A DNA stretch of 62,978 bases, the filler included, from Stramenopiles sp. TOSAG23-6 (lineage: Eukaryota), in assembly GCA_900128565.1 (NCBI GenBank). It is 13 parts of 13 records of this genome, joined end to end, with 100 filler letters (N's around TTAATTAATTAA, not from the genome) between each part and the next. Parts side by side here need not be neighbours in the genome. Positions count along the whole stretch, not along the records: positions 45,671 to 52,060 come from LT636706.1; 12 more parts are not named here. One strand, written 5' to 3'. Numbering within the stretch: the first letter of the stretch is position 1; every line of letters starts with the position of its first letter. The translations under genes and the position numbers were made by a program. The notes below the pieces were generated by a model. That model saw only the letters and a program-made list of their open reading frames with translations, was not told the DNA's origin and ran no database searches. This document shows, piece by piece, positions 13,571-62,855 of the stretch.

Positions 13571-15451
13571 TACCAAAATTTTGTACCTAACAAAAAAAAA
13601 ATTCATTCATTTTGAATAAAAAATATTTTTTCACAATAAATGTTGACACTATGGAAAGATCTTTGTCAATTTGGGATTTTAGATCAAAGATTATTACATT
13701 TTTTATGGAATGAATATGATGAAAAAGTCCGCTCATTTATGTTGGATTTATTGTATGTTTTTTTTTTTTTTTAATTTTGTTTTTTTCGTACGAAATTTTG
13801 TACCTAACAAAAAAAAAAAAAAAAAAAAATTGAAATATTTTTTCACAAAATAAACATCATTTTGGTTTAGTTTGTCGCATTGATGTGAATGAAATGAAAT
13901 ATTTACTTCCTTCCATCGCTTTACGGAACAGACCTGTACAGGAAAAGAAAACACCAAATGTCCAAAATTTTGAAAAAAATATTGAAAAAAATTTTGAAAA
14001 AAATATTGAAAAAAATATTGAAAAAAATATTGAAAAAAATATTGAAAAAATTTCCTATACATTTCGTATACAATTTCAATCATCACAAAATCAAATTTGT
14101 TTACCTCCTGGATTTTTTGAGAGATTAATTGCTGGCGTTGTCCGTCGTTCACATGAAAGTTGCTGTATGTTTTCATTTCAATTTCGAATTTTTTTTTTCG
14201 TACGAAATTTTGTACCTAACAAAAAATTTTAGATTTTTTTTTGAAATATTTTTCAAAAATACATGGGGACGTAGCCAAAAGCCTATATTTGGTGACAGGT
14301 TTGTCCAAATAAGTTTTGGTGAGAATTCGTTTGAGATTGCTCCTGTTTATATTGAAAACATTTCAATTTTGAATGTATTAGGTATGGAATTTCATAGTGA
14401 AAATTCTCAACATGTTGTTGCAAGTATTTGTGTGGCAGTATTGACAGGTTCGTTCCAAAAGATTATTGATGAAATTCTTTATATTGCAGTAGATATATAT
14501 GTTTTATTTTTTTTCAATTTTTTGTCTAAATTTTTTTTTTGTAGGAAATTTTGTACCTAACAAATTTTCAAAATTTTTTTTTGAAATATTTTTACAAAAT
14601 ATATTGATGCTTCCTTTTTTAGTGGTTGTCTTGAACCATGTTTGTTTGTATTATTCAGTTTTTTTTTTTAGTTTTGTACCTAACAAAAATGTTAAAAAAA
14701 AAATTATTTATTTTTGTCAAAAAAAAAAAAATTTTTTTTTTATAGTAAATTTTGTACCTAACAATTTTTTTAGATTTTTTTTTGAAATATTTTCTCATTC
14801 TATATTTGCAATTTTAGAATTACGTAATCAAAAATGTACTATTAATAATACAATATATAGTCCATCTAACCCTAACCCTAACTCAATGAAAGGATTTAAT
14901 GCAAGACATCCTCAATGTAATGTCATTGCTGAAATAAATGCAAAATCTGCTGAATTTGATTTAAATTGTCAAAAAAAAAAATTTTGGTGTTGGGACAAAC
15001 CTGCTGGTGTTGAAAAATTATATGATGGTGTTTTATTTACACATTGGTTACTTGAGGAAGATTCTACTACTACTAACCCTAACCCTAGTAATTTTACTAC
15101 TACTACTAATAATAATAATAATAATAATAATAATTCTAATGATATTGATACTACTAACCCTAACCCTAGAGAATGTAAAGACAAAAATATTTTTTCTAAT
15201 GAACCGGGTATCTCGGAGTTATTTTCATTAGGGTTTTTATTTCATTCAAAAAAAACGCCATTTTATAGAGTCAAAAAAATATCTCAATCATTATTAGGAA
15301 AAGGAGCTTTTGGTAAAACATATTGTGTATCAAAATTAAACAATTCTACTACTATTGATACTACTACTACTAATAACAATAATACTAACACTAATACTAA
15401 TAATAATAATAATAATATTGATGATGATAATATTGATATTACTATTACTAA

Positions 15452-15610: not shown

Positions 15611-17302
15611 TGACGTCATTTTCTATCAAAACAACAGTACTACACGAAATCTCCAAAAGCTTAAAAAGGACAATATTCATAATGACGTCATTCTATATGC
15701 GATGAAAATTGTTGATATTTCACTTTTATCTAAACAAAATGGCGCATCTATAAAAAATCTTCACAAAGAAATTCAAATACTTCAAACATTGTATGTTTAA
15801 AAAAAGTGAATTTCAATTTTTTTTTTGTAGTAAATTTTGTACCTAAGAAAAAAAAAAAAAAAATTATAGAAAATTAACAAATTTCAAATGTAAAATATTT
15901 TGTTACAAATACATACAACATAAAAATATTGTCCAATTATATGACGCATTTTGGTGCTCCTCTGGTTTCATTGTACAACACACGAAAAACCTACAAAATA
16001 GTACAAAACAAATTTATAATTCTTGTTTGTTTCCATCAATTATTTCAATTTTTTTTTTTTTCATAGTAAATTTTGTACCTAACGTTTTTTTTTTTTTTTT
16101 TTGTGAAATATTTTCCCTAAAATTTATTATGTTTACAAATGGAACTTTGCGATATGACTTTGCTTCAATTGATTAATAATGGACAATATAAAGGTATACC
16201 AGTGGTACCAAATATTACAAAAATGTTTTTAATTCAAATTGTTGATGCATTGGCGTGGGTTTTATTTATTTATATTTTTTTTTTAAATTTATATTTTTTT
16301 TTTAAATTTTTTTTTTTAAATTTTTAAATTTTTTTTTAAAATTTTTTTTTTCAAAAACTTAAAATATAATTCTATCTTCAATATCACTACACAATATATA
16401 TATATGCATGCCAATGATATAATACATCGTGATATTAAATTAGATAATATTATGATTGTCAATTCGGAAACTATAAAAATTTGTGATTTTGGTCTCGCAA
16501 CTAAAATTTACCCTTTAAATAAAAATGTGAAAAATATAAATGATGATACACTTGATATGAAAACTTTACAATGTCAAAGAGGTCATATTTGTTATCGAAG
16601 TCCTGAAAATATAATGTTTGTTTTCATCACTCATTTAAAAAAAAAAAAAATGATGAATTTTTTTTTTTTTTTATTATTTTTTTTTAATTATTTTATTAAC
16701 TTAAAATTTATCGTCAATACATATATATATTTTTTTTTGAATTATTTCATGTCAACTTAATGTATCATTAATGTTGTAAGATATATGTTTTTACTGTACA
16801 TGGGGTTTACACTTGACTATGGTGATGATATCTGGGCTTTAGGGTTGTACGTTTTGTAAAAAAAACAAAAAACATTTTGTAGTAAATTTTGTACCTAACG
16901 ATATTTTGTACACTAAAAAAAAAAAATATTTTTTCACAAAATTGAATTATTGTTGAGTTATTGACAGGTATGACAATTGTTCACAGAATACGTCGTAACA
17001 CGAAATATCAAGATAAATTTAATCCTGGTTGTTGTTACCCAGCGGTTAGAAATACAATTTTATTACAAGATTTAATAAATGAGGTAAATGAAATTGTTAC
17101 AACAGTACAAATCGATAACCCTAACCCTAGGAGTACTACAGGAGTACAAATTGATAACCCTAACCCTAGGAGTACTACAGGAGTACCAATCGATAACCCT
17201 AACCCTAATGTTTCAATGTTATCAAATTTTGTACAGTATTGTTTAAATATAGATGCAAAAAAGAGATGGAATGCTAAAAAATTATTAGAAATATTGAAAT
17301 AA
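13340..17302 (+). CDS. COR-like plus Ser/Thr kinase (Roco-like) protein, 5'-partial (start approximate), 10 reconstructed introns
   Basis: VIIDPQWL and LPPGFFERLI (COR-like); LGKGAFG, YAMK, LQHKNIV, HRDIKLDN, DFG, SPE, DIWALG; introns 13510-13641, 13753-13853, 14165-14264, 14497-14604, 14640-14805, 15791-15914, 16025-16127, 16255-16399, 16616-16801, 16847-16944. Confidence 0.75.
15340..15610 (+). repeat. (AAT)n/(ACT)n low-complexity tract encoding poly-N/T
   Basis: Seen directly; lies between the kinase Gly-loop and the YAMK lysine. Confidence 0.9.
15791..15914 (+). mobile_element. Repeat-family intron, GT...AT
   Basis: ACA TT|GTATG...AAATACAT|A CAA CAT gives the conserved kinase L-x-H-x-N-I-V. 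Confidence 0.85.
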
Positions 17303-19643: not shown

Positions 19644-22600
19644 TTAACTAAGATCAAATCCTGATTTTGATGTAATAACGTATAATAGTTTGTTTTTCAT
19701 TACTTTTGAAGAACTATAGTTTGGTAACTTCAGTACATTAAAACAAGTCGAAGCTGTTGGCAATCTTTCATTATCACTACGAATGGTCACACAGCGTACA
19801 CAAAATTTTGGTTCCAGTGATTGAAACCCTAACCTCGGTGGGCTTGACGATGACGTCACAAATTTCAAGAGAAGACATTTTTCTTGATGACTCATTAGGG
19901 TTAGGGTTTTCCAAAATCGACGCATGAAAGGACCATTTGTCAATGCACCTTCTACTTTTGTGTATTTACGTAAATCTTCAACATCAACTGGAGTAGCATC
20001 TCCAGAAATAAGAATTTGAAGTTCTGGCTCGGAAAACATAAATTTTGGAAAAATATTCCAAAAAAAATCTAAAAAAATTTGTTAGGTACAAAATTTACTA
20101 TGAAAAAAATTCAATTTTTTTGTTAAAAAAAAAAATAAAACATACATTTTTAACCATTCAGAGTTGATAATTTGATAAAGTCCTCGCTTGAAAGCTGACA
20201 CTTGTTTTGCAGTTCTCTGATTCAGATGATAATTTGCTAATAAATATGTATACTTGAAACGATTATTTTCATGTACTTCAACACTAGACCCTCCAGGAAA
20301 AAGCTCAATTGTTCTATTTTCACCCATGGCGCAATCTGTCACGGTAAAATCCAAGCATAAATCAGAAACATTTTCCTTCATGTTTTTCAAAAAAATTAAA
20401 TTTTTGAACAATTCTTTGTCTAGAATGTATTGTGAAAAAATATTTTTTTTGTAAAATTTGTTAGGTACAAAATTTCTTACGAAAACCAAAAAAAAAAAAT
20501 TCGATTTTTTTGTAAAAATAAAATAAAACATATGTGACCAAATCATCTAAATAATTTTCCTTTCCTAGTAATTTTCTTAGAAAATGTCTTGCAAACCGCG
20601 GTTGAACAACTAAATTTTCATATAGTGCCTTGCCTAAAATTTGTCCAAGAAATTCAAAATTATCCTCTGTATTTTCACCAATTGCTTTTTCTGAATCAGG
20701 ATTTGGATAAAGCAAACCATCATCTGTTAATTTGAATAAACCATAGAATGGATCAAATGCTACTTCTGAAATTGAATTCCAGAGTTCTTTAAACAATCCT
20801 CCTAGGTCTTGTCCTTTTTCTTGTATACCATTTGATGCTATAAAAGTAACTGATATACGCTTTCGAATGTTTTTTTTCAATAAGAACAATTCTCGAAAAG
20901 AATCAGCAAATATAGAATCCCGTCTCACTAAAATACGCTTATAGGGTTGGGCATTTTTTGGTTGATGATGAGTTTTATCTTTCAATATTTTTGATTCAAA
21001 AATTTTAATTCTTTCTTCAAATGAAACCAAATAAGAACAATCCCGTAAAACTTGATCAAATAGTTTTGAATCATTTCTTACCATTGATAGTATATTGTTG
21101 TCAGCAAGCCATTCACTCCTTTTGCATATTGGTTGTCGCCCATTTCTTTCATATAAATTTTGCATTAGACAACATATACATTGTAAAAGATATTTTGGAA
21201 ATTGATTTTTTTCATTTTGTGTTTTGTTGCTAAATAGTCTTCTGCAGTTTTGTTTTGGTTCAAAATCAGAGAAAAATAATGGTTTTGAATTCATTTGTTT
21301 TACATTTGTTGTACCCAAGTATAAACGTAACAATAATTTCTTCAGTATAGCGATGATTCGGATGATTTCATGAAGATGCAAAGGTTTTCCTTTTTCGTGT
21401 AATTCTACATCATCAACAACAAGTAAAAGATGTGACAGGCACTGACAAAATATCGCCAAAGCTTGACAAATATCGAGATTACTATGAAAATTCTTTGAAC
21501 TATATTGTGGATGATATTCATTAATTGAGGATTCAAACTCATCAGTACTATCCATAAACAACCATAGCACTTGTGGAAATGGTGTTGAAAAGGAAAGAGT
21601 GTTTAATAAAGCACTTTTATCACCAGCTGTTGTGACATCAGCTTGGAGTTGTCGATTCCACATAGTACAGATAGAAAAAATTGCACATTTTCTTTTTATA
21701 CTTATTCTTGTTTTTTTCATTACACTCGGAAATTTTATGTTTTTTGCTGTAGATGTTGCAAGCTTGTAGGATAGAGACGTCGTATTTGTGAGAGGTCCCT
21801 GTTTTATTATTGATGTTGGTCTCGATGACAATGTCTTACTATGTAATAGAGTTTTTGCCCATTTAGCAGTAGATTGCATAAATTCCCATGCAGATGTTTT
21901 TTTTTTCAAAGTACGAGCAGTAAGAGGTTCCATCATGATAGATTTATTAATTTCGAATTTTGTTTTTGTTTCAATATCATCAATAATTCCAGTATCCGCC
22001 GATTTCATAGCATCAACTTCAAGTTGAAATAAAGCAGTGACAATTTGTCGTACGTTTTGTTCACATGACAGTAAGGATAATTGTTTTACTAATACTGGTG
22101 GTAAACTAATAATTTTCATAACATGTAAAGTATTCAAATGTATTCGTGGTTCGCTACCTAACAAAGATAGTGGCATTTTCAATGATATTAAACTTATTGT
22201 TGTCACATAATCAAAAATTACATTTGTTTTTGCAATATTTGCGTTTCTACATAAAAAATGTACTCGTAACAAATTTCCTAAGAGATATATTTGACAAAAT
22301 ATTTCAAAAAAAAAATCTAAATTTTTTTGTTAGGTACGAAATTTCGTATGAAAATGTTTTTTTGGAAATAAATTAGAAATTCAAATAAAACGTACATAGA
22401 GTAAGGAACCTCCTTTATCAAGGGATGGTAGAAAAAATGGATTTGATGGTGAAATCTCCTCAACTAAAGAAAGTGTAGATGGTTGAATACTATATTTCAT
22501 CAAACACGACCATATAGAAATATTTTCAATTTGTGGCTTAGGGTTAGGGTTATTTTGATGGCTATTTTTGTTTGAAACTATATTTTGGTCATTTTGGTAT

Positions 22601-24058: not shown

Positions 24059-25965
24059 TTATATCGTCGATGTTATCACGGATGAAGTCTGTCCTATCAT
24101 CACAAACGCGACTGGCACTTTTTTCCTATTTGCATTTGAAGAAAACAAATCTAGGCTTCTATCGGCGATATAATGTAAACTTTTATGCCAAGCATTATCA
24201 TTCCGTGTACTTGCATCATTATCTAGAGAGTCGCGTACTGGTAAATTTGGCAATCCTATAAAATTCATAGCGCTGCACGATCCAGAGTATGCCCGTAGTA
24301 ATTCAGTCATAATAGCATATCTTTTGGAAGGTGCCGATGTATCATTTATTTCAAATTTTGTGTTGGAAGAATCAATTGTATTATCCGGGCTATCAACACT
24401 GTAATCGATTGAAAGTTCTGATGTGCCATAACCACCAATACTTCCTCTTAACAAAGGTTGCTTTGCATCACCGCTAGAAAACCGTCGTTCAGCTGTTTTT
24501 GCACCTGCTTCTTGATTTTCTTCATCGATAATATTCTGATCTGTATCCTCTGTGCATTGGGTAGCATCAGCAACAGAAAAATTTCTAATTGACATTGAAA
24601 AACAATCTGGAGTTGTAGGAATGATCTTCATAATATCATCACTGGAAACATTGACGTCATCAATAAAAATACAATGTAAATCTTCTTGGTCTGGAAATAT
24701 TCTAGCATCTGTCAAACGTAGCCATAGCATTGAAATTACACTGTCTTTATATGAATTTAATAAATTCACATCATAGTCACCATCACCATCATTACCACCT
24801 CTCATTTCTTCTGGTATCATACTTAAAGGCACTAAATTAAACACACGAAGTCTTGAACCTTTACAAAATCGTTGATTTAATGATAATATATGAGCAAGAT
24901 AAAGTGCAAGCGATGACGTATCTGAGAATGTAAATGGCTTAAGTGGATCAAAATCTTCACTTGACAGAAACTTACCCGCATTTAACCAGACATTAATATA
25001 ACTTCCCTGCGGAGTTACTTGCGAATTTTTCTTTACATTAAAATCGTCCCAAATATTTCGTGAATCAAAATTTGCTGCAACGACAAGATTTTTCCGAAGG
25101 CTAATAGCATCACGGAGTATATATTTTGGAAAAATATTTCAAAAGAAAAATCGTTAGGTACAAAATTTACTATAAAAAAATAANTNCGAANTAAAAAAAA
25201 ANATACATATCTAAAAATGCACTAGGTTCATTTTCAAGAAAAGGCATATTTCTCATATTTCTATCTGAATTTTCATTATTTTTACTCTCACCAATCCTAC
25301 TACTTTCATTACCGTCTTTTCTTGACAACGGCAGAACAACCGTATTAACATCCATAGCTCCAAGACCTGAACAAGTCATTAGTAAACGGCAACCAACCCG
25401 TTTAGAACTAGCCATTGTCACTTGTGGAAATGCTTTCAAACTCGAATCACGAATTAAAGAAAGCCATGAATTTCGACGTTTCTCTAACGCATCGGCCATG
25501 AGCGAGACATCATCACCAACTAAAACAGAACCTGCGATAAAGATACCACCTTTTTTACTATATTCACAAAATGTAACGAGATCTCTAGAATCAAGACTAT
25601 CAACAAGTAATAAATAAGAAGGTCGCCAGAATTTAGCATTAGAAGAAGTATCTAACTTTAGTAGAAACTTTCGTAATTGATGAAACATCAAAGCCTGTGA
25701 TATGTCTCCCCAATCTTTTTGTAAATCATTAAAGTATATTAGAAGAAAAATGAATATCAGTGCCGTGATTCCACCCAAAGCAGAAATAGGTGATAACCAT
25801 ACCATTACACCAATATTGAGGAAAAATCCAATCGCTGATGTTTTTTTGTTTACAAAATGTCGAAACACAGGCCTAAAATTGGGCGCACCAGTCATTATTA
25901 GTAGAAAACATGTTAGGTTACATAAGGCATACGATAAGCAAAAAAAAGATGTAATTACTGGGGCA
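24059..25965 (-). CDS. SLC12 cation-chloride cotransporter, C-terminal part; intron 25206-25119
   Basis: GAPNFRPVF, WGDISQALMFHQLRKFLLKLD, KFWRP, SGLGAM..NT, C-terminal VITSTI. Confidence 0.85.
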
Positions 25966-26182: not shown

Positions 26183-27411
26183 CACGTTTTGCGGACCCCA
26201 CAAAGGACTAATATTTTGGATTTCAGGTTGTACAAAAGACGTGAATTGTAAAGTAGAAGACTCTATAACTCTATCTCTTGTTTTCATTTGTAGAGATACC
26301 AGTAACTTCTTATTTGTCATAGTCATTGAAGGGCACTGGAATGTATTTTGGAAAAATATTTCAAAAAAAAAAGTCATTAGGTACAAATTTTCGTACGAAA
26401 AATAAATTCGAAATTGAAAGAAAAATAAAACATACATACAACTGTAGAACTATCTTTAACCTTTCCAGGAACAATCATATACTGACTCCACTCTAAGCCC
26501 AAAACAAAAGGCTTGTCTGGCATTGAGGCATCATTGGCGTATGATTGTTGTGCATGATCAAAACATACTACTTCATGATGCACCCGCTGTTGTACATTTT
26601 CATGAATTTTTTCATTACTATTGACTATATTTTTACAATGTTTTTTTTTTTCAGTTTTGTTTGGCGTAGGTAGTTTATATTGATATATTTTTGTCTGATT
26701 TTTATTTCGTTTATTTCTTGTTTCTATTGGGTTTAAGCTCGATGAATCAAAGTTTTTATTTCGTTTATTTCTTGCTTCTATTGGGTTTAAGCTTGATGAA
26801 TCAAAGTCACATACTGGAATTATAACCAAATGAGATAAAAAAAGTTCTAATGATGTTTTGTTGAGTGTTTTAAAATACTCTTGGTATTGTCTCAATGTTA
26901 GGTATAAATATGCATATATTGATGTCGCATTTGATTGCTTTATGTCTTTTACTCGTACTAAAAGAGAACCTGTTTTTTTATTTTTCCATAAGTGCAATTT
27001 GACAACTCTTTCTAAAGATGGAAAAGTCACGACAGGTATCTCTATAGTAGCAGTCAATAAAAGACTCCAAAGCAAAGTAGAATTTGTGTTCAACAAGGAT
27101 ATATTGTGCCATTCGCTAGTTGGTGGTTCGCTGCGAAGAGGCATGCCTCTTAAACAAACTGTTATTGTGTGGTCTTGTTCTTCATTGGTCAAGGAAGGAG
27201 AAAACTCCACTTCAACTGGATAACCTCCGACATACAGTCCAATATTTGGCTTTAATTTCTGAATAAATCGTCCATTTGGAATAGTATTATTTTTATTTTC
27301 TCTTGGTAAATCATTTGTCTCTACCTTTTTTGAAATAGGGTCGAGCGATATTTTTTTTGTCGTCGACTTTTGGACTCTTGTAATACTTGGTAAAGTTAGT
27401 GAGTCTTCCAT
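26183..27411 (-). CDS. Hypothetical protein with IPT/TIG-like segments, 3'-partial; intron 26435-26341
   Basis: IQKLKPNIG..VGG and PEIQNISPLWGP; frame restored by GT-AT intron. Confidence 0.55.
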
Positions 27412-33029: not shown

Positions 33030-34234
33030 TTACTCAAGATTTGATGTTTCACGTTTTCTCTTTTTACTCAACATTTCTTCTAAAGTAGGTAACAAAATGT
33101 CTAATGATTTCATAGTAAACTCTGGAGTTTTTTGTTCATGTATTTTAGAAAAATATTTCAAATTTTTTTTTGAAAATTTGTTAGGTACAAATTTTCGTAC
33201 GAAACCAAAAAAAAAAAATCAATTTCAAATTTTAAAAAAAAAAATAAAACATACATCACTCGAAGAGTCACTGACAAATTCAGATAACTCATTTTCATTT
33301 GTTGCACCAGACATCACTAATATAGTTCTGAAACCTCCTCTATTTCCAAATAACATATCCGTGTCTAATCGATCTCCAACAAAAACAACGCGATTTGGAT
33401 CTTTGGGAAGATTAAATTTTTTTTTTGTTAAATTTGCTAAATTTAATGAAGGTTTGCCACAAACAACAGGATCGACTCCCCCTGCGATGTGTACAGCAGA
33501 GACTATACTGCCACCACCTGGAACGAGTGGACCATTTTTTAATAGAGGTGAAGCGGCATCAGTGTTTGTGGCAACAAAATAAGCTTTACCATATCGAAGA
33601 TACATGTATTGTGAAAAAATATTTTTTTTTGTAAAATTTCTTAGGTACAAAATTTCGTACGAAAAAAAAATTTAGACAAACAATTTGAAATTCAAAACAT
33701 AAAACATACATGGAGGCTTTGTGTAATTTACCATAGCAAAAACTCCCATCAAATCCAACAACAACGCCAGAAACATTAGGATTCATATCTTCGAAACCCC
33801 ATGACTTGACATCATCAAAATTTTTATTTTTGTCTTCTAACCCAAGAGTGACGAAACCATCCGATTGAAGAGTTTTATGTAAACCTTCTTCACCAACAAC
33901 ATATAAAGTACTACCCGCTGCAATTTTTTCTTTGACATGCCGAGAAGCAGCCATTGCAGAAGACATCAAATCACTTTCTCTTACCTCTATTCCTAAATGC
34001 TTAAACTTTGCCTTAAAATCAGCGACTGTTTTAGTGCTATTGTTTGTCACATAACTTACANACTTNCCNANTTTTTTTNANTGCTNCGACAACTTTATCA
34101 GATCCATTGATAACTTTAAGACCAGTCCATATCACTCCATCACAATCAAAGACAAAAGCATCTATGCTATTAATCAAATCGCAAATAACATCTGATTGGT
34201 CTTTCAATAAAGTTTTAGGCGGGACCATTGGCAT
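33030..34234 (-). CDS. HAD IIA phosphoglycolate/4-nitrophenyl phosphatase; introns 33709-33604, 33254-33138
   Basis: FDCDGVIW, VTNNS, ATNTD, GKPS, VGDRLDTDMLFG; ambiguous bases near 34060-34090 disturb the frame. Confidence 0.9.
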
Positions 34235-35231: not shown

Positions 35232-38200
35232 TTATAGTGAAGCTGATCGTTGGAGACAAGACACTCTTCGATGACGAAACATTGCATGACGTCCAACATC
35301 ATCAAGTGTTTGAAGTCTGTAATCATTCTTTACTAAAGTTGTTAATTCTCTCCTAACGTTTTCGTAAAACCTTTTAAATGAGAAAATACCTAACTGCCCT
35401 CGTAAAAATTCCACCAGGTACAAACCTGTTCGTAATTGAAATACACGTACTGTACAAACAGATACTCCTGCTCTTGTTACATTGAGGGAATATTTATCCC
35501 AATCAGATATTACCTTTTGACGGATGTGTTTATAGGGGTATGTAATGCAAAAAAATATTTCAAAAAAAAATTAAAAATTTTGTTAGGTACAAAATTTTTT
35601 TACNAAAAAAAAAAAAAAAAAATTTAAAAAACAAAAAAAAATTAAAAAAAAAAAAATTAAAAAATAACGTACAAGGCAATGGATGCGAGTCAGCTTCAAC
35701 AATGTTTGCAATTCTTCGTAATACAGCAGCAGCTGGAAACGTTGTAGTAAACCGAGTAGATCTTTTCACAGTATCAACAAATAAAGGGACATTCTTCAGG
35801 TCATTTTTTATATTTTTTATATTTTTTGTGTTTTTTGTATTTTGTATATGTTTCGTGTTTTTGAGTGTCTTTTTTTCATGTATATTTTTTTCATTTTCCA
35901 CATACTTATCATTATTATTACTAGACAATTTCATATCAGAATGTGTAGCAATTGTATCATTACATTGTAAATTAGAAAAATTGTCTTTAGTAGATTTTAT
36001 TTTTGTTGGACTATTAGGGTTAGGGTTCCAGCGATGATGAAGTTGCATTGGTAACAAACTCCTAGGTGATGGAGACCAATTTTTTGCTGAATCACGAAAT
36101 CTTCGACTTTCAACATCAGTCATTGGATAGCATATACTGTAAAAAGATATAACATAGAGTATTTATTTTTGTTACAAAATTATTATTCCAAAACATTTAG
36201 TTACAAAACAAAAAAACAAANAAATTTCAAAAAAAAAAAAAATTAGGGTTAGGGTTATTCAAAAAAATAAAACCTACATAAATCTTCAAATATTTCATCA
36301 TCAAAAGAATCTGATGTAATAAATGAATGTGGAGATAAAGTATGATCTGAAAATCGACGTCTTGGGTGTAAATTTGATGTTTTACTTGACTTGTTTGATT
36401 GAGCACCGACTATATCGAGTGGAAGTGATCTCGCACATTGCGATACATTTTGATAATTTGCATTTTGTAAAGATTGACAAGTGGTAGGACTAGGGTTAGG
36501 GCTTTCATTGTACAAGTCATTATACAAATCCATTTGAAAAGATTCATCATTTTCACGTTCTATCCTATTTTGAAGTAGCTGTGGCGCTAAAGGAGGCGAC
36601 GAAAAAAATGGTGTATTTCGTGTTTGTCTTGACTTTGTAGAATTGAAATTTGTTTTTTCTGTATTTTCTGTATTTTCTGTATTTTCTGTATTAGGGTTGT
36701 TGTCAAATGTATGTGAATTTCCAATTTGTTCATTTTTTCTAGAATTTGCATGTTTTGTTAAATATTCCCCTGGTGTAGTAGATGTAAGAGAATTAGTAAA
36801 CATTGTATTATTGTCTTCAGTACATTTTCTAAGAGAACGAAATGGCCTATGAGTCCAAGTGTTACCCGGTGACAGTTCTTGTTTGAATTCACCTATGTCA
36901 TCAAGGTCATGTAAAGACTCAAAATCAATCCAAAGTGGTTTTTGTTTTTGTTGTTGTTTTTGTTGCTGTGAATCAACAACATCTATCACTTCAATTATTT
37001 CATCTGTTGTATTATTTCTTGAGTTATGTTTTAAATTATGTTTTGAATTATGTTTTAAATTATGTTTTGAATTATTTTTTGAATTATTTTGTGTTAGCCA
37101 TGGATGACGTAATGCTGATCGTACGGAAATCCTATAGACAGGATCTGGTTCCAATAATTTTGTTAATAAATCTATCGCCTTGATGGAGAAATTTTTAGGA
37201 AAAAACCAATTTGGATACAATGTATCACTTTTTTGCTTCATAGGAAAAAGCAATGCTTCAATACATTGGTTATCATTGATAGTATCATACTCATTTCCAA
37301 TAGCTTCTTCATTAGTGTTAGAATTGTACGAAAAAAGTTGTTTATTATTGAGTTTTTGTACTTGATTTTGTTCTAGTGCTGTACATTTATGTCGTTTTTG
37401 ACACTGAATTTGATATTTATGTAAAATTTCACGACGATGTTGTGTCCATTCACGCCATTTTGCAAATCGTGGACATTGGAGCAAATCTTTTCCAAAGGGT
37501 AAGTTTCCTGCAAGCATTGCATATAAGATGATTCCTGACGACCAAACGTCAACAAAGACTCCATCATAGCCTCTATTTGGAGTATGTTCCTCAGAATTGA
37601 TTCTACGATTACATGAATGCTCAGATGTTGATGATAACGATGAAAGGACTTCAGGTGCTACATAATGTGGAGAACCAACAACACTTTTTAGACGTCTTAT
37701 ATCTACTGTATTATTGTTTGCCGGACCTGCACTAAATTTCATTTTTTTTATTGAGAATATATCAGATTCATTTTGAGAATCTCCGAAATAAGCAGAAAGT
37801 CCAAAATCAGCAATTTTTAAAGTCGGATACATATCATCATGATCGGAAAGTAACAAATTTTCAGGTTTTAAATCCCGATGGCAAACACCTCTTTCATGAC
37901 AAAATAAAATACCTTGTAGTAATTGTTGGTAATATCTACGAGCGATGTTTTCTTCCGTTCCTCGATCAATCAAAATTCGATCAAACAATTCACCACCAGA
38001 CGCCAACTCAAGCACTAAAAAAATTGTACTTTTTGACACATTAACTAATTCAAGAACTTCAATCAATCGTAAAACATTTTTATGTCCGCTTAAATAAGCC
38101 ATATGTTGTATTTCTTGCAAAATGTTTCTTCTATCTTTAATAAAAGCTGCATATTTAGACGATATAGTAGGTATAGTTACAACACCTGCTGAGGTTTCAA

Positions 38201-42410: not shown

Positions 42411-45285
42411 ATGGAAGCTTTAGACGCCGCATTCCCCACCATTGGTGAAGCCATGCCTTCAAATGTCACCACATTTGATGATAATGGTAAGAAGAAAAAG
42501 AAAAAGAAGAAGGATGCTTATGGCTTTGCAGCATTTGGTTTGTGCAAAAATGTCTTTGGTGCAATTAGGCGCATTGGATATAAACAACCCACACCCATAC
42601 AAAGAGCGGCTTTACCTCCAGCGTTGTCTGGTGCAGATATTGTTGCCATGGCTAGAACTGGTTCAGGTAAGACTGCTGCATTTATTATTCCTATCATAGA
42701 GCGTCTTCAAGTGCATAATAAACGCATGGGCTGTCGAGCAGTACTGATATCTCCAACTCGTGAGCTCGCTACTCAAACGCTTAAATTTGCACGGGATCTT
42801 TCTAAGTTTACCAACCTTCGTTTGTGTCTTCTTGTTGGTGGTGAAAGTATTGATCGACAGCTGGATGTCTTATCAGCAAATCCTGATATTATTATTGCTA
42901 CTCCTGGTCGAATCACACATTTATTAGAAGAAGTCAAAAGTTTTTCTTTAAATGCCGTTCAAGTTTTAGTCTTTGATGAAGCCGATCGTCTATTTGAGAT
43001 GGGGTTTCGTGATCAATTAAATGATATTCTCAAGGCAACACCAGACTCAAGACAAACTATGCTCTTTTCTGCAACAATGCCAAAAATGTTGGTTGAATTC
43101 ACACGTGCAGGATTACAAGATCCATCCTTCATTCGATTAGATACTGAGTCTCAAGTGAGTCCCAACTTACGAATGAATTTTGTGACAGTGCGCCCTTCAG
43201 AAAAACCAGCAGCTTTATTGCATATCTGTGCAGAGATTATTGGTCCAGCACAGCAAACAATTATTTTTGTGTCTACGAAGTATCATGTGGAATTTATCAC
43301 TGAACTTTTGAAAAGTGCTGGTCATCTTTGTGCCTGTGTCTATGGTGCACTCGACCCGATGTGCCGTAAAGCAAATATTGCAAAATTTCGTGCTGCTAGG
43401 GCACAATTTTTAATTGTGACAGACGTAGCCGCTCGTGGTATTGATATTCCAATGCTTGATAATGTCATTAATTATGATTTTCCAGCTAAGCCAAAGTTAT
43501 TTGTACGTTTTCATTATGAATATCAATTTTTTTTTTCGTACGAAATGTTGTACCTAACAAATTTCGAATTTTTTTTTTTTTACAATACATGTGCATCGTG
43601 TTGGTCGTGCTGCTCGTCAGCATCGGAATGGTAGTGCTATTTCAATGGTAACTCCCGAGGACCTGCCATATATGCTCGACCTCATGCTTTTTCTTGGCAA
43701 GAAGCCAGATAATGGAGATGGTAGAGGTCCTAAATTTACATTAATAGCCGATGGTGGTGATACAACTGCTATTGAAAAAAATGACTCTATGAAGAAGAAA
43801 ACGATCTGCAAGCCTGAAAAGTATTCTCTATCTACGCAGCAACCTGATGAATTACACTATGGTGGACTACCTCGATTTCTATTAGATAGTTCTGTTGAAG
43901 CATATGAAAGTTATAAAAATTCAAGTGTAGCAATACAAGAGACCGAGAGAGTGGCTCTAAATGGATATAAGGCTTATATCCGGACACGTCCTCCAGCGTC
44001 CAAGACATCTCAGCATAGATGTAAAGAACTGCATCCTATTCTAGTACATCCTCTTTTCCGAGAAGCAGCGGAACTTTCAGGTAGCAACGCTACCGCTGAA
44101 ATATTTGCTAGTAAACTTTCTAATTACAGGCCTTCTATGACTGTGATGGAAGTACAAAATTTGAAATCTGGCAAAGGTGTTTTGGATGTTTTGAGAGCTA
44201 AGCGAATTGCACACCAGCGCCATATATATACAGTCCGTACTACCGAAAAGAAGAAGCATTCAGAATGGTTATCTGCCGGTGGGTATGAAAATGATACAAA
44301 TGATAAGCAAATGATCAAAACTGAAACTGTTTCAGGTGGAAAACGAAAGCAAAACCAGTGTAATGATATCAGTGGTTCAGATACAATTGAAATATATAAA
44401 AAACATAAAACAAATAAAATAGCAAAATGTCAAGCAAAAATTCCAAAGCGAAAGTTATCGAAAGCGGAGAGAAAACGAATGAAAAAACAACGATTAAATC
44501 CGGCGATATCAAACGCGGTCAATATAAACATCAATACAGATGATAATACAAATAACACTACAAACAATAATACAAAAACTCCATTAAGTTTCCGTGATAA
44601 TTCAGTGTTTATTAATGTACGCCAATCGGATAGCGAGGTAGCAAGTAGTCGTGGTCTTTCAATACGAGATAATGTCAATGGTGATACAGCTATAGCTGCT
44701 AGGCAACATATGCAAGAAGCTGTGCTCGATCTGATGCCCGATGAAGTGTCAAAATTAGGTGAACAGAGACGATTCTTCTGGGATAAGAAGAAAAGAAAAT
44801 ATGTAAAAACGTCATTAAATGACATAAAGGCTAATAAAAATAGAGTCAAAACTGAAAGTGGTAAAATGGCTAAAAAGGAAGTTGGTAAGATTTATGAACA
44901 ATGGTGTAAAAAGAATAAACGAAGCATTCTATCCATCGGGGAGGAAGAAGGTGGTGGTACTGCTGCAAGTACTATAGCCTTTGAAGCGCAAGGTATGGAT
45001 TTAAAAACAATGCGAAGAAAAGGTTTATCTCGTGGCGCAATCCGGGAGAAAGAGAAGAAATCAAAGGCAGCTACTTCTGGTGGCGAATTGTATAGCGCAG
45101 AAACGATTCGAAAACAACGCAAAGAAAAAGAGAAAAGAAGAGCTAAAAATGGCCGAGGGCGTGGTGGTCGTGGTCGAAGTAGAGGTAGAGGAAGTGGTGG
45201 ACGTGGTGGTAAAAAGATTCCAGGATTTGGGCAAGGTAGAGGTTCCAAATTTGGCAAGGCGGGATCAAAAAAGCGACGACGTTAA
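42411..45285 (+). CDS. DDX54: DEAD-box RNA helicase DDX54/Dbp10; exons 42411-43502, 43591-45285
   Basis: MARTGSGKT, PTRELA, DEADRLFEMGF, SAT, HRVGRAAR, C-terminal WDKKKRKY...KTESG. Confidence 0.92.
43503..43590 (+). mobile_element. Repeat-family intron, GT...AT, just before helicase motif VI
   Basis: TTA TTT|GTACGTTTT...TACCTAAC...ACAATACAT|GTG CAT CGT gives KLFVHRVGR; the 88-nt intron contains no AG. Confidence 0.9.
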
Positions 45286-45723: not shown

Positions 45724-46246
45724 TACTACACTCAAGGCAATGGTTAATGTCGCAAATGAGGGGAAGGAGGATTCATCTAAAAATCTCGAAATTTGTGCTG
45801 CCTCTGGTATCACCGAAGATAATGTAGTTCATTTGGCTGAAAGTAGCGGTGTTGCTTCTGTTCATGTACGTTTTCAAAATTTGTTTTTTTACCTATTGTT
45901 TTTTTCATAGAAAATTTCGTACCTAACGATTTTTTTTACCGAAAAAAAAATATTTTTCACTGTACATGGTTCCTTTCGTACTCGAGTAAATGGTAGAATG
46001 CTCTGGCGACGACAAAATCTTCCACCGGTTCATATGGGTCAAGGGTTGGAAAATAGTAATGCAGAAAGTGATCATACTGAATATACTCTTAAAGTAGCCT
46101 GCGAAGATCGCATTCGCGTTGTTGTGTCTGATTTACATGAATTAGCTCTTAAACAAAACAGAAATAAAAAAAAAGCTGGTACAAGTTGGGTTGATATCGA
46201 TGGTGGTTATAACAGTGATGAATCTGATAATGTCAGCGTTGAGTAA
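45724..46246 (+). CDS. CutC-like copper homeostasis protein, C-terminal part; intron 45866-45967
   Basis: ICAASGITEDNV..L....GV.SVH-GSFR...M.WR...VHMG...EY pattern. Confidence 0.7.
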
Positions 46247-46450: not shown

Positions 46451-49400
46451 TTAATATAATAGCATTCCACCAAGACCAAATTTGATCGTAGTACTTAACC
46501 GAGATCTCATCATAGACAGCGAAGTGTACGCAGGTAATTCTAATGTAAAGAAACAAGTGTGTGATATAGGTAACGAAGAAAGACTGCCTTCCATTCTTGT
46601 AATTGTCAAGTGATGTGACCAAGTGCCACGTGGTAATCTATTTCTACCCCAAGCAAATCGAATAAATCTGCTTCGTTCCTCATCGTCCCAATCATTCATT
46701 ACTTGCCAGAAGAATTTTATTGTAGGATCATTGTGCTTATATCCACGATACTCGGTATGTTGCTGAAGGATACTCACAGACACTTCCTCTCGGCCACAAC
46801 ATAATTCCTCTAGTTCTCTTGAAGTAAATAAACGTAGTAATCTACCTGGGACAATAGTAAACAATCCTCGACGAATGGCAAGAATTTGTATATTAAGTAT
46901 TGTGAAAAAATATTTTTTTTTACGAAAAAATAAATCGTTAGGTACGGAATGTAGAACGAAAAAACAAATTTAGGTAAACAATTCAATTTTGAAAACATAC
47001 AAATTCTTTCATTCGTGTTTTTTCTGCAAGTTCAAGATATCGTTGGCGTTGCTGCCACGAAACCTGAACGTCCCGACCACCATCATATAATTGAGATTCT
47101 GATCCATTTGCCAGAGTAACTACAAAACGTAAATCGCCAAAATCATCTTTGAAGTCAGATTCAATTTCACTCACAAGATCAGCAGCTTTTATCACTTTCT
47201 CCTGGGCCTCTTCAGAATGTCCAGACAATTTCAATGTTTTTGCTTCTTTGTTTAATCTACGAATTAAATCTTCATCATCTTCTCTATATTCCTTTGAAGC
47301 CTTTAAAAATGTCACAAAAACTTCATCAATTCCTGATAAATCGCGTGTCTCGATGTCTTCATCAAGAATCGCTTTCCATATTACAGGAGGAAAACAGAAG
47401 GGAAGGCTTGCCTTTGTTCTCAAAGAAATTCCTAATAATTTACCAATGAATTCAAACATACGTATATGTTTCGGTGATGCAGCTGCCGCATTTGGAACAT
47501 ACGCATCTTGATTTTGACCTATCTTTTGGACCCCATTTGGGCATAGAATTAACAAGTTCAAGTCATTCGAAAATAAGTCTTCGACCATTTGAGTGATTGC
47601 TTCCCTATATGGTCCTCCAGCATCCACAGCACGTTCACCAGCAAATTTTACGCTGAATACATGTTCATGATGCCGTAATTGACTTGGAGGGCGTTTGTGT
47701 AATTGGCGAAATGCTTGAGTAAATAAGCAATTAGACAGTGTGGCTTCAGTCACACCATCTTCCTTGGACTTGATTGCTTTCTGACGATCTAAGCGAAGTG
47801 ATACGCTAACACTGCTTGTAGTTGATTTCAAACCACTCACTAACAAACTAGATTTGACATCCGCAAAAACAAGATATGCTAAACTACGCAAAAGAAAACC
47901 AAAACTCCATTCACACTCAACCTTTGTAAGATCAATTAAATGTACCACATTTGATAATAATTTGTTAAAATTCAATATTATAGAAAAACGAGTCGCGATA
48001 TCTTGAGTATTTTTATTTGCCAAGCGTTGAAATTTCATTTTGTCTTTTATCGAGATTTGAGATAATTGCTGGGGTGAAGCATGAATTGTGAAAAAAAAAA
48101 TTCTAGTAAAAAAATCGTTAGGTACGAATTTTCATTGTAAAAAAAAATCGAAATCCTATTTTGAAAACGTACATGAAGTGACATATGCCTGTAGTGATCC
48201 TGAGGAAATCTTTTCCCCTGACAAGCTGACTGTTGTTCGACAATATTATTATGCATTCGAACTAATTCTGCATCATCTTCAAAAGTCCAATTTTTGGGTA
48301 ACGAATTAATGGAATTAATGAGGCTATCGCGAGCTTTACTCGAATTTCTTTCCTTTTTCAATAATAAATTCATTATTTTCTTTGCCGGACGTCTGGTATT
48401 GGAAGGATTTGAACTTACTTTCATCAATTGTCTCATGAATTTATTTAATTTTGCCGCGCGAATGTTTGCCGCAAAACCCCATAGTGAATCAGTGTTTTTA
48501 TCACCTCCGTCAATTGTGACAATCAGAACCTCACCTTTCATTTTCATAGTTTCCTCTATAATAAGTTTATCTGTTCTAATAAAACTATGATTTGATAATT
48601 CAAGTGTCTCTTTTCGTTTTGTTATTACGCGTTTTGTATCCGCTACAGACCATGATACTTCAACACCTGACATTTTCATGTCTTTTGTATACGGAAGATT
48701 TTGTAAAATATCACGACAATCCGGAGAAATATCTTCATTCTTGCATTTTTCCAAATATGCTTCGGCCTCTTTTTCAGTTTTGAAACGAAAATATTTTGAA
48801 GTAGAGTCATTTTTTATTTTACTAATTATCTTGCTAGATGATCGAAAAACCCCAATTTTCCTACCCTGTGTTATAGCATACCAAGAACCTTTTGAAGCAG
48901 AAATACTCTTTTTTTCTGTAGAGATCTTATCCGTTGTATCCTTATTTTGTGTTGATTCTGTGTTTTTCTCAATGTTTTTATTCGTTTTACAACTATTTGG
49001 ATTTTTAGGATTTTTAGGATTACTCATTGCACTTTTTTTAGAAGGATCGATTATTTCGCATTTGAATGATTGAAGAATTAGAGTTGCGTCCGGTGTAATC
49101 CTTGATCTAAGATCGAAATCTATTTCCATAGAATCACCACCTGCCACATGTATTTTGGAAAAATATTTCAAATGTTTTTCGTTAGGTACAAAATTCGTTA
49201 GGTACAAAATTTCGTACGAAAAATAAATTCGAAATTGTAAAAAAAGTAAAACATACATGAGCATAATGAAACTGAATTCGATCTTTTGAACCTATTTTTC
49301 CAGAAGAATGAGGATGTACAGATTGCATAAACCCACCGCCTCTCATTTCAAGTGCAGCCGCATAAACAAAAGATTCTTGAAAATTTTTCGTCTTTTTCGT

Positions 49401-52060
49401 CTTGTGGGGCGTACTTTGACATAAAAGTCCATTCATTACCGATACAGCTTCATACAGTTTTTGAGATTCTGAAGGTGGCGGAACTTCTTTTGATTCTCTA
49501 CTTGACACAATTGCTTCTAACTCAGGCCAATGAGAATAAATAAACTTTATATGTTTGCTTTCTGTTTTTAAAAAGGATTTTGAAGCATTTGAAAGACGTG
49601 AACACATAAATTTTCGAGCAGTTACAGAAAGTTCGAGTAAACTTTGTAATCGAGATGGTAAAAGTTCACAACTCTGCTTGCGATTTCGAGAATCTCGCCG
49701 TGAATCTAATGTTGCTCGTATACATCTTTTTTCTGCATCACTTCCGATCTGTTGCACAACAGATATACACGAAATTGGAAATCCGATTCCATCACCAGGA
49801 AACAAATTGGGTCGTTTAAGAAGTTGGGTGAGTAAAGCGACCACGCGGTTTTTATAAGGCGCCCCAGACGTTCGCAGATATCGTAATAAAGCTTCAACAA
49901 CAGCAGGTGTATGTATTGCGCGGCGAATTTTATCATCGCCTTCAGATAAAAGAAATTCCAAGACCCAACAAGCCCATTCCAAGCAAGACTCTTCAACAAC
50001 TTCCAATTCTGAAAGCCATTGAAGACCATTTATTGGTGAACAATATTTATTGTAGTCAAAACAATTGTTAGGTGCAAAATTTTGTATGAAACAAAATTAA
50101 TTTAAAATTAAATTTGAAATTGATGATGAAAACGTACATGAATTGGCGAAACAACAAATTTATATCCCCACCCATGTTCACTATTATTTGGCTTATTTGA
50201 TGAAAATGACACCCAAAATTTTTCTTGGTGGATTATAAATGCACGCCACTCCGACGATGAAGCTGAATCTCTCTGGGAATCAATACTTGATCCTTGCATA
50301 CTTGCAATCAAATTACTTTTTCCTTTATCCGCCCAAAATTTTAAAACACACCCTTTCGCAGTTTCACAACGGCGGTCAAATGTCACACGGACAGCTTTGG
50401 CAGCTGAAAAACTCACGGCAAATAAGTAGTTACATGTTGATACAAAAGGGTGTAAAGATTCATACGTTTTGATAGATTTAGTTTCTTGAGACGTCGATTG
50501 TAATAAATGAGATGTACACTGTCTCACTAATTCCGATCCAAGAGTACCGACTCGTGATTTTGCTGTAGGACTTTTTTCATTTTCAAGATGTTTCATCTGA
50601 ACATTAGGTGCTTTGGCCTTCATTGTAGGATTCATCGATAGTGATAATGCAAAAGATAAAGCTTCACTTTCATCCTCATCACTACTCTCCACAACATCAG
50701 CATATTCCGCAGTACTTGATGAGCTTGAATTCGTATGTATATCATCAATTTCATCACTTTTTTGTTTATCACTCTCATGACTATTTATATCATCATCTCT
50801 ATTGTGTTCAATGTCAGTATATATTACTTCGTCTTCAAGCATCTCACGAAGAACTGTACGAAGAGATGAAACAATGGAGTCATTATCCCCATGAACAACA
50901 TTTTCCGCGGAAACATTTTCGTCACTTTCAGACGAATTTTCATCCATGGCAATTTTTCTGTCACCATTAGAACTTTTCTTTTTCTTTTTAATATTTTGCT
51001 TTCCATTCAAGCCTTCTGCAGCAATCAAAAATTTGCATACAGTCACAAATTTTTCCATAGACTTTTTCGCACCACATAAAAATGTTGATTTTCTATGCTC
51101 GCGAGGCCACACACGTAATAGATTAACTAATGTTTTTCGTGCATAATTCACACCTAAAGCAGAAATGGTTCGTAACATTCCAGCTTGTATAGATCGTATT
51201 CCACCACCAAAAGGGCTTCCAAATATTTCTAGAGGTCGTTTCAAGCAGCTGGCACGAAATGTGCGAGTACTCCCAAATCCAGAATCTTCATTTAAGATAC
51301 GTACCTGGCAGACCCAATCGCTTTTTTTTGCAGCGGTGACTGTCGTATCATCCTGAGGTACATTTCGATCAACAACTGCGTTATATTTATTTATCAAAGA
51401 GGCGGCATAAACATCTGGGCCACAGGACAATAAAACACCAATACTGGCATCACTTGTACTTGGACAACTACTGTTTACAATATTACCAGCTATGACAATA
51501 GATCCAATATACGCACGAAGTTCAACGCCATGTAAGGGCAGCGATGAAAGTTTCATTTCTGATATATTGCAGAAACCTTTGCTACTGTTCATTTTACTTG
51601 CACCATTAGCAGAATCCGGTTTATTATTATTATCACTCACACTAACCTCGCTTGAATGTAGTAATAAAGGATCAACTTCAGTCATATCCTCGAATGCCGC
51701 ATCATTGCTTTCTTCAGATCCTGTTTTCCCTTCTTTTTTACTTTCACGATGTATTGTGAAAAATGTTTTTTTCTTTCGTTTAAAAAATCGTTAGGTACAA
51801 AATTTGGTACAAAACAAATCTAGGTAAAAAAACTCAATTTTAAAAACGTACATCATCTTCTCGAAAAGCTTCTAAATATCGACCACCTGCGTCAATGACC
51901 CAATTTGTCGCTGAACTAACGTGACCATTAAACATTTCCAAAGCTCTAAAACAAAGACGTGGCGGGAAATTTGACAATTGAGCCATTTCAAGACTCATTT
52001 CCCATCTCTTTTTATCCTTTCCTTCATGCCCACCACCTACTTCTTTTGCACCCTTCATGA
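46451..52060 (-). CDS. Large HERC-like HECT E3 ligase, 5'-partial; introns 51851-51749, 50137-50028, 49256-49148, 48172-48081, 47000-46895
   Basis: FAGERAVDAGGPYRE, FIRFAWGRNRLP, LPISHTCFFTLELPAY; UBA-like segment upstream; all five introns restore frame. Confidence 0.88.
46895..47000 (-). mobile_element. Repeat-family intron, GT...TT with duplicated TT
   Basis: GAA TTT|GTATG...CAATACTT|AAT ATA CAA gives RMKEFNIQILAIRRGL, matching the HERC-type R..EF..Q..A.R.G pattern. Confidence 0.8.
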
Positions 52061-62049: not shown

Positions 62050-62855
62050 CAAGTATAGTTTTACAATGTTATTATGTAATTTTGTGTAAATTGAATTCAA
62101 ATAGAAAAGATAACAGTCTTATTCGATATGCAGTAACACGAAATATACAAATGAAAACATTAATTGCATGTACGTTTTTTTTTTTTTTTTGAAATTTTTT
62201 AATTTTTTTTTTCATACGAAATTTTGTACCTAACAAAAAAAAAAAAAAATTACAAAAAAAAATATTTTTTCATAATACATGGGTAAATATGTCAACCGAA
62301 GAATTTCAAAAAGTAAATGAAAAATGTTCAAATATTGAGGAAATGGTCCAAGAAACAACTCATTTAACTGATTTAAGTCAAAATGTTTCAACTAAAACTC
62401 AAATAACACCAAATATGGAAGCAATTGTTCAATCCAGTTTACAAATAATTCTCTATTATACAAAATGGTACAAAGAAAACCCACAAATTCAGAATGATGA
62501 AAATTTAATATCTAAAGAATCTCGATGCATGTATGTTTTTTTTTTTGAAATTTTGAATTGTAAAAAAAAAAAAAAAAAAAAAAATTTTCCAAAAAAAAAA
62601 AAAAAAAAAAAAAAATTCTTACAATAATTTTTTTTTTTTTTTTAAATTTTTAATTTTAAAAAAAAAAAAAAAAAAAAAAATTGTCCAACAATTTTTTTTT
62701 TTTTGAATATTTTCCAAAAAAACAGGATATCTACAGGTAGAATATTAGAGCTATCGACACCAGAGACATTTATCATTAAAATACTAAAGTCAACAATGAA
62801 TAAGGAAATTCGGTTTCATGTTGTACAATTTTATTTATTAATAGATTTACCAAAA
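62050..62855 (+). CDS. Internal exons of an unknown gene; introns 62170-62280 (GT-AT), 62531-62725 (GT-AG)
   Basis: Open exons bounded by family introns. Confidence 0.5.

Follow-up and report, generated by a model that had tools for sequence, protein, structure and literature searches.

The genes in the stretch of Stramenopiles sp. TOSAG23-6 DNA analysed here (62,978 nucleotides (nt), filler included; hereafter, the window) are interrupted by a family of look-alike introns that open with GT and, in most copies, end with AT. RNA for two copies and frame-exact removal for the rest show that these sequences are really spliced out, and the non-AG acceptor is established by RNA, reading frame and homology. 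It is very probable that they are spliceosome-type introns, all descended from one short, AT-rich, high-copy element, and that they constitute a marine stramenopile introner family. From the features described below we also infer that the element spread by transposition and how its unusual acceptor may be recognised.

The repetition is plain from the motifs that the copies have in common. GTAYGTTTT occurs 31 times in the window against an expected 2.55, a number reached by none of 100 shuffles, and the box GTACCTAAC, with at most one mismatch, occurs 64 times against an expected 5.83. When 18 full copies were aligned, the common blocks were, on the 5′ side, a donor block and then a block around TTCGAA; in the middle, a CGTACG palindrome running into the GTACCTAAC box; and on the 3′ side, a GAAATATTTTT block followed by the terminal CA(C/A)AATAC and two further nucleotides. 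A profile built from these 18 copies and searched against the window gave 57 matches, two of them in a contig that is present twice, which amounts to about 0.9 copies per kilobase (kb) (57 matches in 61,728 non-N bases). The 24 full copies measure 88 to 136 nt and are 82% A+T, and an intron composed of tandem copies reaches 176 nt. Although the matches span only 4,475 of the 61,728 non-N bases, 12 of the 26 internal contig ends are found no more than 40 nt from a match. A previous reading of this DNA, made from the sequence alone (hereafter, the sequence-only reading), had proposed a single introner-like family so numerous that contigs break inside its copies, and had suggested counting them with a profile; the motif excess, the alignment, the profile matches and the contig ends all bear it out. 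Scaling the 55 distinct matches in about 61 kb to assemblies of 19 to 21 Mb, like those in Table 1 of PMC5778133, would give on the order of 17,000 to 19,000 copies genome-wide, a rough extrapolation from one window.

Outside the window, metagenome contigs scanned with a 23-nt degenerate core pattern gave one further profile match, a single AT/AT copy in a contig of an unrelated metagenome (L001), and the viral contigs scanned with the core pattern gave no matches. Genome contigs yielded a single match, in a contig of a Bacteroidales metagenome-assembled genome (L002, 6177–6209); it comprises only 33 nt around the box, with neither donor nor 3′ box, and was treated as a chance match. In a DNA metagenome, 4,522 contigs align at 93% identity or more to the 6.4-kb contig that holds the HECT gene described below, stacked on the bins that contain elements, a depth that does not equal copy number. 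In the RNA libraries X6, X7 and X8, 651, 683 and 87 contigs, respectively, match the same contig, mostly in the element bins 45671–45883 and 49079–49291; these may stem from retained introns, from excised introns or from carried-over DNA.

Direct evidence for removal comes from a comparison with RNA that was limited to this one 6.4-kb contig (45671–52060), with libraries in the form of contigs, which inform on presence and not on level. A 151-nt poly(A) metatranscriptome contig (X8 record 27) matches 46846–46894 and then 47001–47102, skipping the intron on which the analysis was centred (the focal intron, in a HECT-domain gene). A 419-nt contig from a second poly(A) run (X7 record 17) matches 45809–45862 and then 45965–46315, a skip that corresponds to the 102-nt intron 45866–45967, offset by a 3-nt repeat. 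Each skip is flanked by at least 49 letters on either side. Some stretches of the HECT gene had no RNA contig over them, and no conclusion is drawn from this. The introns are retained both in the single-cell assembly and in an independent seawater DNA run: DNA contig X3 record 3 spans 46967–49171, includes the intron 48081–48172 and enters the focal intron, and X3 records 1 and 2 lie inside 45866–45967. Long-range joints among the contigs (for example, from 46921 to 49190) connect different element copies, and we discarded them as repeat artefacts.

Reading frames extend this picture to the other copies. Among the full-length matches whose ends were set by the profile, 21 of 23 keep the frame on removal, where about one third would do so by chance; one of the two failures is a 1-nt extension error (22285–22395) and the other is a copy with its donor near 14497. 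In the HECT gene (46451–52060, minus strand), excision of five family copies yields a frame of 1,695 codons with a terminal stop only, while the other two frames then hold 104 and 172 stops. Orthologues that span the junctions of this gene do so at 29–41% identity. The junction after residue 606 (intron 50028–50137) is ungapped to P0003, and the one after residue 1548 (the focal intron) is ungapped to P0003, P0002 and P0004; in a tblastn comparison, residues 816 and 817 of P0004 fall exactly at 47001 and 46894. The junction after residue 863 has a 5-residue gap, and those after residues 69 and 1188 lie in weakly aligned stretches. The scar-free excision that had been read from the sequence is supported by the two RNA skips, the preserved frames and the long HECT reading frame.

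Short, AT-rich sequences that interrupt coding sequence and have repeated dinucleotides at their ends might also be cut from DNA, like the internal eliminated sequences of ciliates, with no RNA splicing at all. However, the single-cell assembly and the independent DNA metagenome retain the elements and the poly(A) RNA contigs are without them; moreover, the copies carry donor- and branch-type signals, lie in sense orientation and end in AT or TT, not TA. Elements that are retained in DNA, missing from the poly(A) RNA contigs and not bounded by TA led us to reject elimination of the ciliate type, which is scarcely credible here.

The acceptor and the register of the cuts

Since T almost always precedes the donor and almost always closes the intron, RNA and reading frame leave the register of the cuts open by one to three bases. 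Ten copies whose flanks differ were used to compare three registers. With cuts before GT and after the last two bases, the frame stays open in all ten, which holds for no other register. A register shifted by −2 (NNGT..AC), in which most copies would become AT-AC introns, meets in-frame stops in three of the ten and was rejected; in a helicase gene, it would replace F by Y as the final residue of exon 1, at a position where the solved DDX54 and DBP10 sequences align to a conserved F. The −1 register meets a stop in one of the ten and is otherwise indistinguishable.

Both ends were called in 32 copies. Their termini are GT..AT in 25, GT..TT in two, GT..AG in two, AT..AT in one, GT..TG in one and GT..AA in one, the acceptor of the last being ambiguous; that is, GT opens 31 of the 32 and AT closes 26. 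The non-AG acceptor (AT or TT ends) of the sequence-only reading is supported by RNA, frame and homology. Between the GTACCTAAC box and the 3′ end, ten copies contain a total of 11 AGs, whose use would cause a frameshift in eight cases and a stop in one, and would leave the frame open in two. As the use of internal AGs would mostly break the frame, they are bypassed for a position two bases past the 3′ box, and this same aligned position is held by AG in some copies and by AT in others.

The mechanism that we propose is as follows. Every copy comes with a donor of its own (GTAYGT), a branch-type box like that of yeasts (GTACCTAAC) and a conserved 3′ box (CA(C/A)AATAC), and the RNA is cut directly before GT and two bases past the 3′ box, leaving ends that are mostly AT and less often TT, AG or TG. 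The AGs that are passed over suggest that what marks the acceptor is where it lies with respect to the 3′ box of the element, rather than AG itself. The GTACCTAAC box, which ends 33–68 nt before the 3′ end of the intron, is a candidate branch site on account of its likeness to the yeast consensus.

Non-AG ends are tolerated by the minor spliceosome, and GT-AT termini occur among U12-type introns, in which, as in the present family, a highly conserved donor and branch-type box could be expected. Nevertheless, no donor here has [AG]TATCCTT, the donors reading GTAYGT instead, and the distance of 33–68 nt from the box to the 3′ end contrasts with the short spacing that characterises U12-type introns. 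On both the donor motif and the box spacing, we set U12-type identity aside as highly improbable.

Origin and spread of the family

Several observations point to descent from master copies. Outside three signal blocks, the interiors of the copies have a mean similarity of 0.571 on the left and 0.571 on the right, against 0.479 and 0.482 when shuffled (276 pairs), and the maxima reach 0.90–0.96 against 0.72–0.73 in shuffles. Whether donor position 4 is C or T goes, weakly, with the kind of 3′ box that lies some 100 nt further on (9/5/1/8, p = 0.029; nine of 32 copies unclassified), an association that does not represent pairing covariation. There are also partial and tandem copies. Together with the contig ends that fall within copies and the stacking of metagenome contigs on them, these features argue for copying from a common source.

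An explanation that dispenses with transposition would be that the introns are old and that a spliceosome demanding very long signals, as in yeasts, Giardia or Trichomonas, has kept them alike through constraint or homogenisation. It would agree with a pattern common to all recognisable introns of the window (five of five in the HECT gene), with the location of the best-conserved blocks where donor, branch site and acceptor are expected, and with copies that are at best 69–89% alike. In those signal-rich lineages, however, intron density is far below 0.9 per kb, and a need for long signals would not explain similarity that runs through the interiors, linked end variants, tandem and truncated copies, assembly breaks within copies or thousands of metagenome contigs piling on them at 93% identity or more. 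We consider this explanation quite improbable.

The dinucleotides at the borders of the copies bear on how they spread. According to the sequence-only reading, a 2-bp target-site duplication supplied the acceptor as one of its two copies, and covariation between the dinucleotide before the donor and the last two intron bases was offered as a check. In the 32 copies, these pairs are AT/AT in 19, TT/AT in three, TT/TT in two and CT/AT in two, with AC/AT, AA/AT, TG/AG, AT/AG, TT/TG and TT/AA seen once each; both the TT..TT copies it had pointed to (46895–47000 and 8075–8210) and its mismatched flanks (CT/AT, AA/AT and TG/AG) are among them, and AT..AT is indeed the most frequent. Matching pairs number 21 of 32 where 16.75 are expected (permutation p = 0.007), both copies that end in TT have TT before the donor (Fisher p = 0.042), and 19 of the 20 AT-flanked copies end in AT, as opposed to seven of the 12 others (p = 0.018). 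By the criterion given in PMC9860276 (Gozashti et al.), however, AT..AT is ambiguous among a duplication, an insertion-site preference and part of an inverted repeat; because AT is self-complementary and nearly constant across copies, the 19 AT..AT pairs are uninformative on duplication. Older copies that decayed at both ends could also yield part of the association. Few pairs are informative, the one signal specific to a locus being TT..TT, and the evidence for a duplication is no more than suggestive; that the last two intron bases derive from a duplicated 2-bp target has, in our judgement, somewhat less than an even chance.

The copies may instead have spread through RNA, by reverse splicing at CAT|G-like sites followed by reverse transcription and recombination, with no target duplication. 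The terminal AT would then belong to the intron, and the AT of the exon would reflect site preference. Such a preference is visible at the spliced junctions of 24 copies, with A at −2 in 17, T at −1 in 23 and G at +1 in 16, and unlike pairs vary mostly on the exon side while the intron end stays AT. In the treatment that PMC9860276 gives of fungal introners, those with neither duplications nor inverted repeats are interpreted in this manner; in the present family, the inverted ends span few nucleotides and are predicted to pair no better than controls. Orientation also agrees: 46 of the 57 matches lie on the strand of neighbouring long open reading frames, three are opposite, three have no such frame nearby and five are mixed, and the three opposite matches are weak or outside coding sequence, so that none is shown to be antisense within it. 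Yet the strand bias fits selection against unspliceable copies just as well as RNA-mediated spread, and a TT flank on both TT-ending introns (p = 0.042) is not predicted by site preference alone. On balance, we regard spread through RNA as unlikely.

If the element is a DNA transposon, its ends are of interest. The sequence-only reading had labelled it as resembling a miniature inverted-repeat transposable element (MITE) with terminal inverted repeats, and its ends are literally complementary: the reverse complement of AAAATAC is GTATTTT, which gives an inverted repeat of 4–7 nt, or of 6–9 nt when the AT flank is included. The rest of the label fared less well. ATGTAT and ATACAT form an exact 6-nt complement, but this takes the flank into account and is confined to GTAT-type copies; about half of the copies have GTAC at the donor, so that the repeat is interrupted at position 4. 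In RNA folding of 23 copies, the expected number of end-to-end pairs was 1.51, as compared with 1.48 when the middle was shuffled and 1.23 when the last 12 nt were shuffled, and no compensatory changes between intron ends were seen. Closure of the ends as a hairpin was rejected on this pairing, and so were hairpin-guided non-conventional introns like those of euglenids and Amoebophrya, as GT also opens 31 of the 32 copies. A transposase flanked by the same ends had been suggested as something to look for; no transposase domain was found among the 20 long open reading frames of the window that were scanned. The MITE-like label is therefore weak.

The element has further regularities of its own. 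In three copies (49148–49256, minus strand; 14670–14797 and 60634–60746, plus strand), the branch-like box and the palindrome upstream of it are doubled in tandem within a single element, and the CGTACG block and the box block resemble two diverged copies of one 12-mer. Six-nucleotide and shorter DNA palindromes (TTCGAA, CGTACG and GTAC) are plentiful, for instance in 7247–7369, with no obvious role in splicing, and may be protein-binding sites for mobilisation.

A number of points weigh against the introner reading and the inferences drawn from it. The identity of each copy to its best partner is 0.69–0.89, so no very recent burst is visible. Every recognisable intron of the window is a family member, which leaves no ordinary intron to contrast with long splice signals. 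Neither presence/absence polymorphism nor an empty site was seen, and the DNA run carries the same introns where it covers them; no autonomous element was found in the window. Eleven of the 32 flank pairs differ, mostly with a conserved AT at the intron end and a varying exon copy, and these fit AT as the element's own acceptor equally well as a decayed duplication. In ten of the 32 catalogued copies, one end was chosen with the help of the reading frame, so that frame is no independent test there, and the copy with its donor near 14497 was omitted from the counts because its ends are irreconcilable with the frame at the profile positions. RNA supports two junctions only, both with repeated flanks, and by itself leaves the cut register open.

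In its strongest form, descent from a transposon would mean that nearly all introns of this lineage are copies of one mobile element, and that the spliceosome no longer reads AG but cuts at a constant distance of two bases past the 3′ box; those two bases would be the dinucleotide duplicated at insertion, so that the insertion site, and no fixed signal, would determine the acceptor. We find this doubtful, though worth stating: if true, a free-living stramenopile would have had its recognition of 3′ splice sites rewired by a transposon, a change missed because annotation assumes AG.

Catalogue of copies and the sequence around them

The copies and the motifs of the focal intron are collected in Table 1. 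The copy near 14497 (plus strand), like the intron at 20425–20533, reads ATATGT where others read GTATGT, so that the intron would begin with A.

Table 1. Copies of the intron family and motifs of the focal intron. Paired dinucleotides (for example, AT/AT) give the two bases before the donor and the last two bases of the intron.
Feature	Position	Strand	Description
Focal intron	46895..47000	-	106 nt, GT..TT, TT before donor, HECT-domain gene; RNA contig and orthologue alignment
Donor block GTATGTTTT of focal intron	46992..47000	-	
Branch-site-like box GTACCTAAC of focal intron	46937..46945	-	Ends 43 nt before 3′ end; putative branch role
Family intron	45866..45967	+	102 nt, GT..AT, AT before donor; RNA contig skip, frame kept
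HECT-gene intron	48081..48172	-	GT..AT; frame kept, within 1,695-codon reading frame; retained in DNA metagenome contig
HECT-gene intron	49148..49256	-	GT..AT, box tandemly duplicated; frame, long reading frame
HECT-gene intron	50028..50137	-	GT..AT, box variant GCACCTAAC; junction after residue 606 ungapped to P0003
HECT-gene intron	51749..51851	-	GT..AT; frame, long reading frame
Second TT..TT copy	8075..8210	-	136 nt; profile ends and frame
DBP10/DDX54-type helicase gene intron	43503..43590	+	GT..AT, TT before donor; frame kept
Family intron	14165..14264	+	GT..AT, CT before donor; frame kept; −2 register gives in-frame stop
Family intron	11025..11133	-	GT..AT, CT before donor
Family intron	15791..15914	+	GT..AT, TT before donor
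Family intron	35540..35672	-	GT..AT, TT before donor
Second HECT gene intron	20425..20533	-	AT..AT (ATATGT replaces GTATGT); frame kept; P0004 alignment ends at 20533
Family intron	20038..20145	-	GT..AT
Diverged AG-ending copy	6805..6966	-	TG before donor; −2 register gives stop
AG-ending copy	12365..12485	-	AT before donor
TG-ending copy	16847..16944	+	TT before donor, within kinase-like motif; acceptor set by frame and motif spacing
Copy with ambiguous acceptor	13753..13853	+	TT before donor; frame permits 13850, 13853, 13856; none of these gives AT or TT
Two partial copies in tandem forming one 176-nt intron	1732..1907	-	AT/AT
Family intron	801..893	+	AT/AT
Family intron	7247..7369	-	AT/AT
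Family intron	7637..7757	-	AT/AT
Family intron, donor GTTCGT	8361..8476	-	AA before donor, ends in AT
Family intron	11977..12083	-	AT/AT
Family intron	13510..13641	+	AT/AT
Family intron	22285..22395	-	AT/AT
Family intron, contains N	25119..25206	-	AT/AT
Family intron	26341..26435	-	AT/AT
Family intron	33138..33254	-	AT/AT
Family intron	33604..33709	-	AT/AT
Family intron	62170..62280	+	AT/AT

We read the window as 14 short contigs strung together, each join consisting of a fixed 12-letter linker within a run of N. It is AT-rich, with a G+C content of 21–42%, and it contains eukaryotic genes for HECT ligases, a DBP10/DDX54-type helicase, a kinase, RCC1, WW and ankyrin proteins, and an EF-Tu-type GTPase. 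The top database match of a HECT exon is the EukProt 'assembled CDS' (coding sequence) GSMAST32; read from its name alone, this suggests a single-cell assembly of a MAST-3 (marine stramenopile) lineage, of the sort that PMC5778133 describes, although the prefix is absent from the text of that paper.

A complete 5S ribosomal RNA gene (45452–45570, minus strand; 85.6 bits, model positions 1–120) lies at the extreme end of a contig and adjoins the helicase gene; it was the only hit in the Rfam scan of the window, which found no small nuclear RNA. Long intron-free open reading frames (458–628 amino acids) are located at 4248–6128 (plus strand), 17492–18868 and 53286–55172 (both minus strand), with no Pfam family at E ≤ 0.001. 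The final four contigs are about 1,011 nt each, and two of 1,011 nt (59747–60757 and 60858–61868) are identical letter for letter, that is, one contig is present twice.

Known introners and the annotation of marine stramenopiles

The family has consequences for the annotation of uncultured marine stramenopiles. The EukProt model P0001 of the HECT gene, for instance, starts after the first intron and lacks 5, 14, 4 and 15 residues at four family introns, and the residues it drops are present in distant orthologues. A pipeline that seeks canonical borders would produce exactly these defects. Given a density near one such intron per kb, the majority of multi-exon models in this lineage are probably damaged, which would distort gene counts, completeness scores and functional inferences. 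For one MAST-3 assembly, PMC5778133 (Table 1 and methods) reports an unusually low number of predicted genes, and complete protein matches that did not suffice for training a gene finder; this low yield might be tied to AT-ending introns.

Surveys based on annotation would miss the family, since they start from annotated introns, which here are modelled with other borders. Our literature searches, in which supplementary tables were not covered, found no published description of an AT-ending introner family. Among papers on MAST genomes, PMC5778133 uses 'intron' only in routine methods and has neither 'splice' nor 'canonical', PMC12614181 contains neither 'intron' nor 'splice', and PMC8163842 has 'splice' only once, in its reference list. 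The family provides an extra case for the debate on intron gain by mobile elements, and the combination of a canonical donor and a branch-type box with an AT acceptor and bypassed AGs makes it a natural system in which to ask how the second step of splicing finds its site.

Among known systems, the introners of Micromonas pusilla and Aureococcus anophagefferens, the latter also a stramenopile, are alike in several respects. As the passages of PMC11282704 and PMC9860276 that deal with them describe, one short sequence is found at unrelated loci and is spliced without a scar, the splice signals are partly borne by the element, and bases are repeated at the borders. In these same accounts, however, the borders are GY..AG, the duplications are clear and 3–8 bp long, and the inverted ends are longer, whereas the present family ends in AT in 26 of 32 copies, its possible 2-bp duplication is mostly uninformative, and its inverted ends measure 4–7 nt.

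The closest published architecture is that of the Chrysochromulina introners, in which, as described in the legend of Fig. 2C of PMC9860276, the donor is borne by the element, the acceptor comes from the duplication and there are no inverted ends. This is the arrangement that the sequence-only reading had proposed for the present family. The figure gives Chrysochromulina a 4-bp duplication and a canonical acceptor, while the present family would have a putative duplication of 2 bp and a non-AG acceptor. The introners of Amoebophrya, to judge from the sections of PMC7789003 on its introns, are likewise repeated, have non-GT-AG borders, direct repeats at the borders and inverted ends, and break gene prediction. 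They differ in that, according to those sections, there are no conserved border dinucleotides, the inverted repeats are 8–20 nt long and form hairpins, and U1 was not found; in the present family, by contrast, 31 of 32 copies start with GT, there is a branch-type box like that of yeasts, and closure as a hairpin is unsupported.

Two other systems may be compared. Fritillaria borealis also has abundant non-canonical introns, as mentioned in PMC11282704. Their borders are described there as mostly AG..AC and AG..AT, with the 5′ end altered, whereas the present family keeps a canonical 5′ end and only its acceptor departs. Work by Henriet et al. in 2019 reportedly found the non-canonical introns of Fritillaria to be MITE-derived and handled by the major spliceosome. 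Fungal introner-like elements, for their part, are described in the relevant text of PMC9860276 as favouring genes and the sense orientation and as showing neither a clear duplication nor clear inverted ends, in which they resemble the present family. They differ from it in having canonical borders. Their copy number is, in addition, much lower. Thus, the present family is unlike all of the systems compared: it has a canonical GT donor and a yeast-like branch-type box, yet it ends in AT and AG is ignored.

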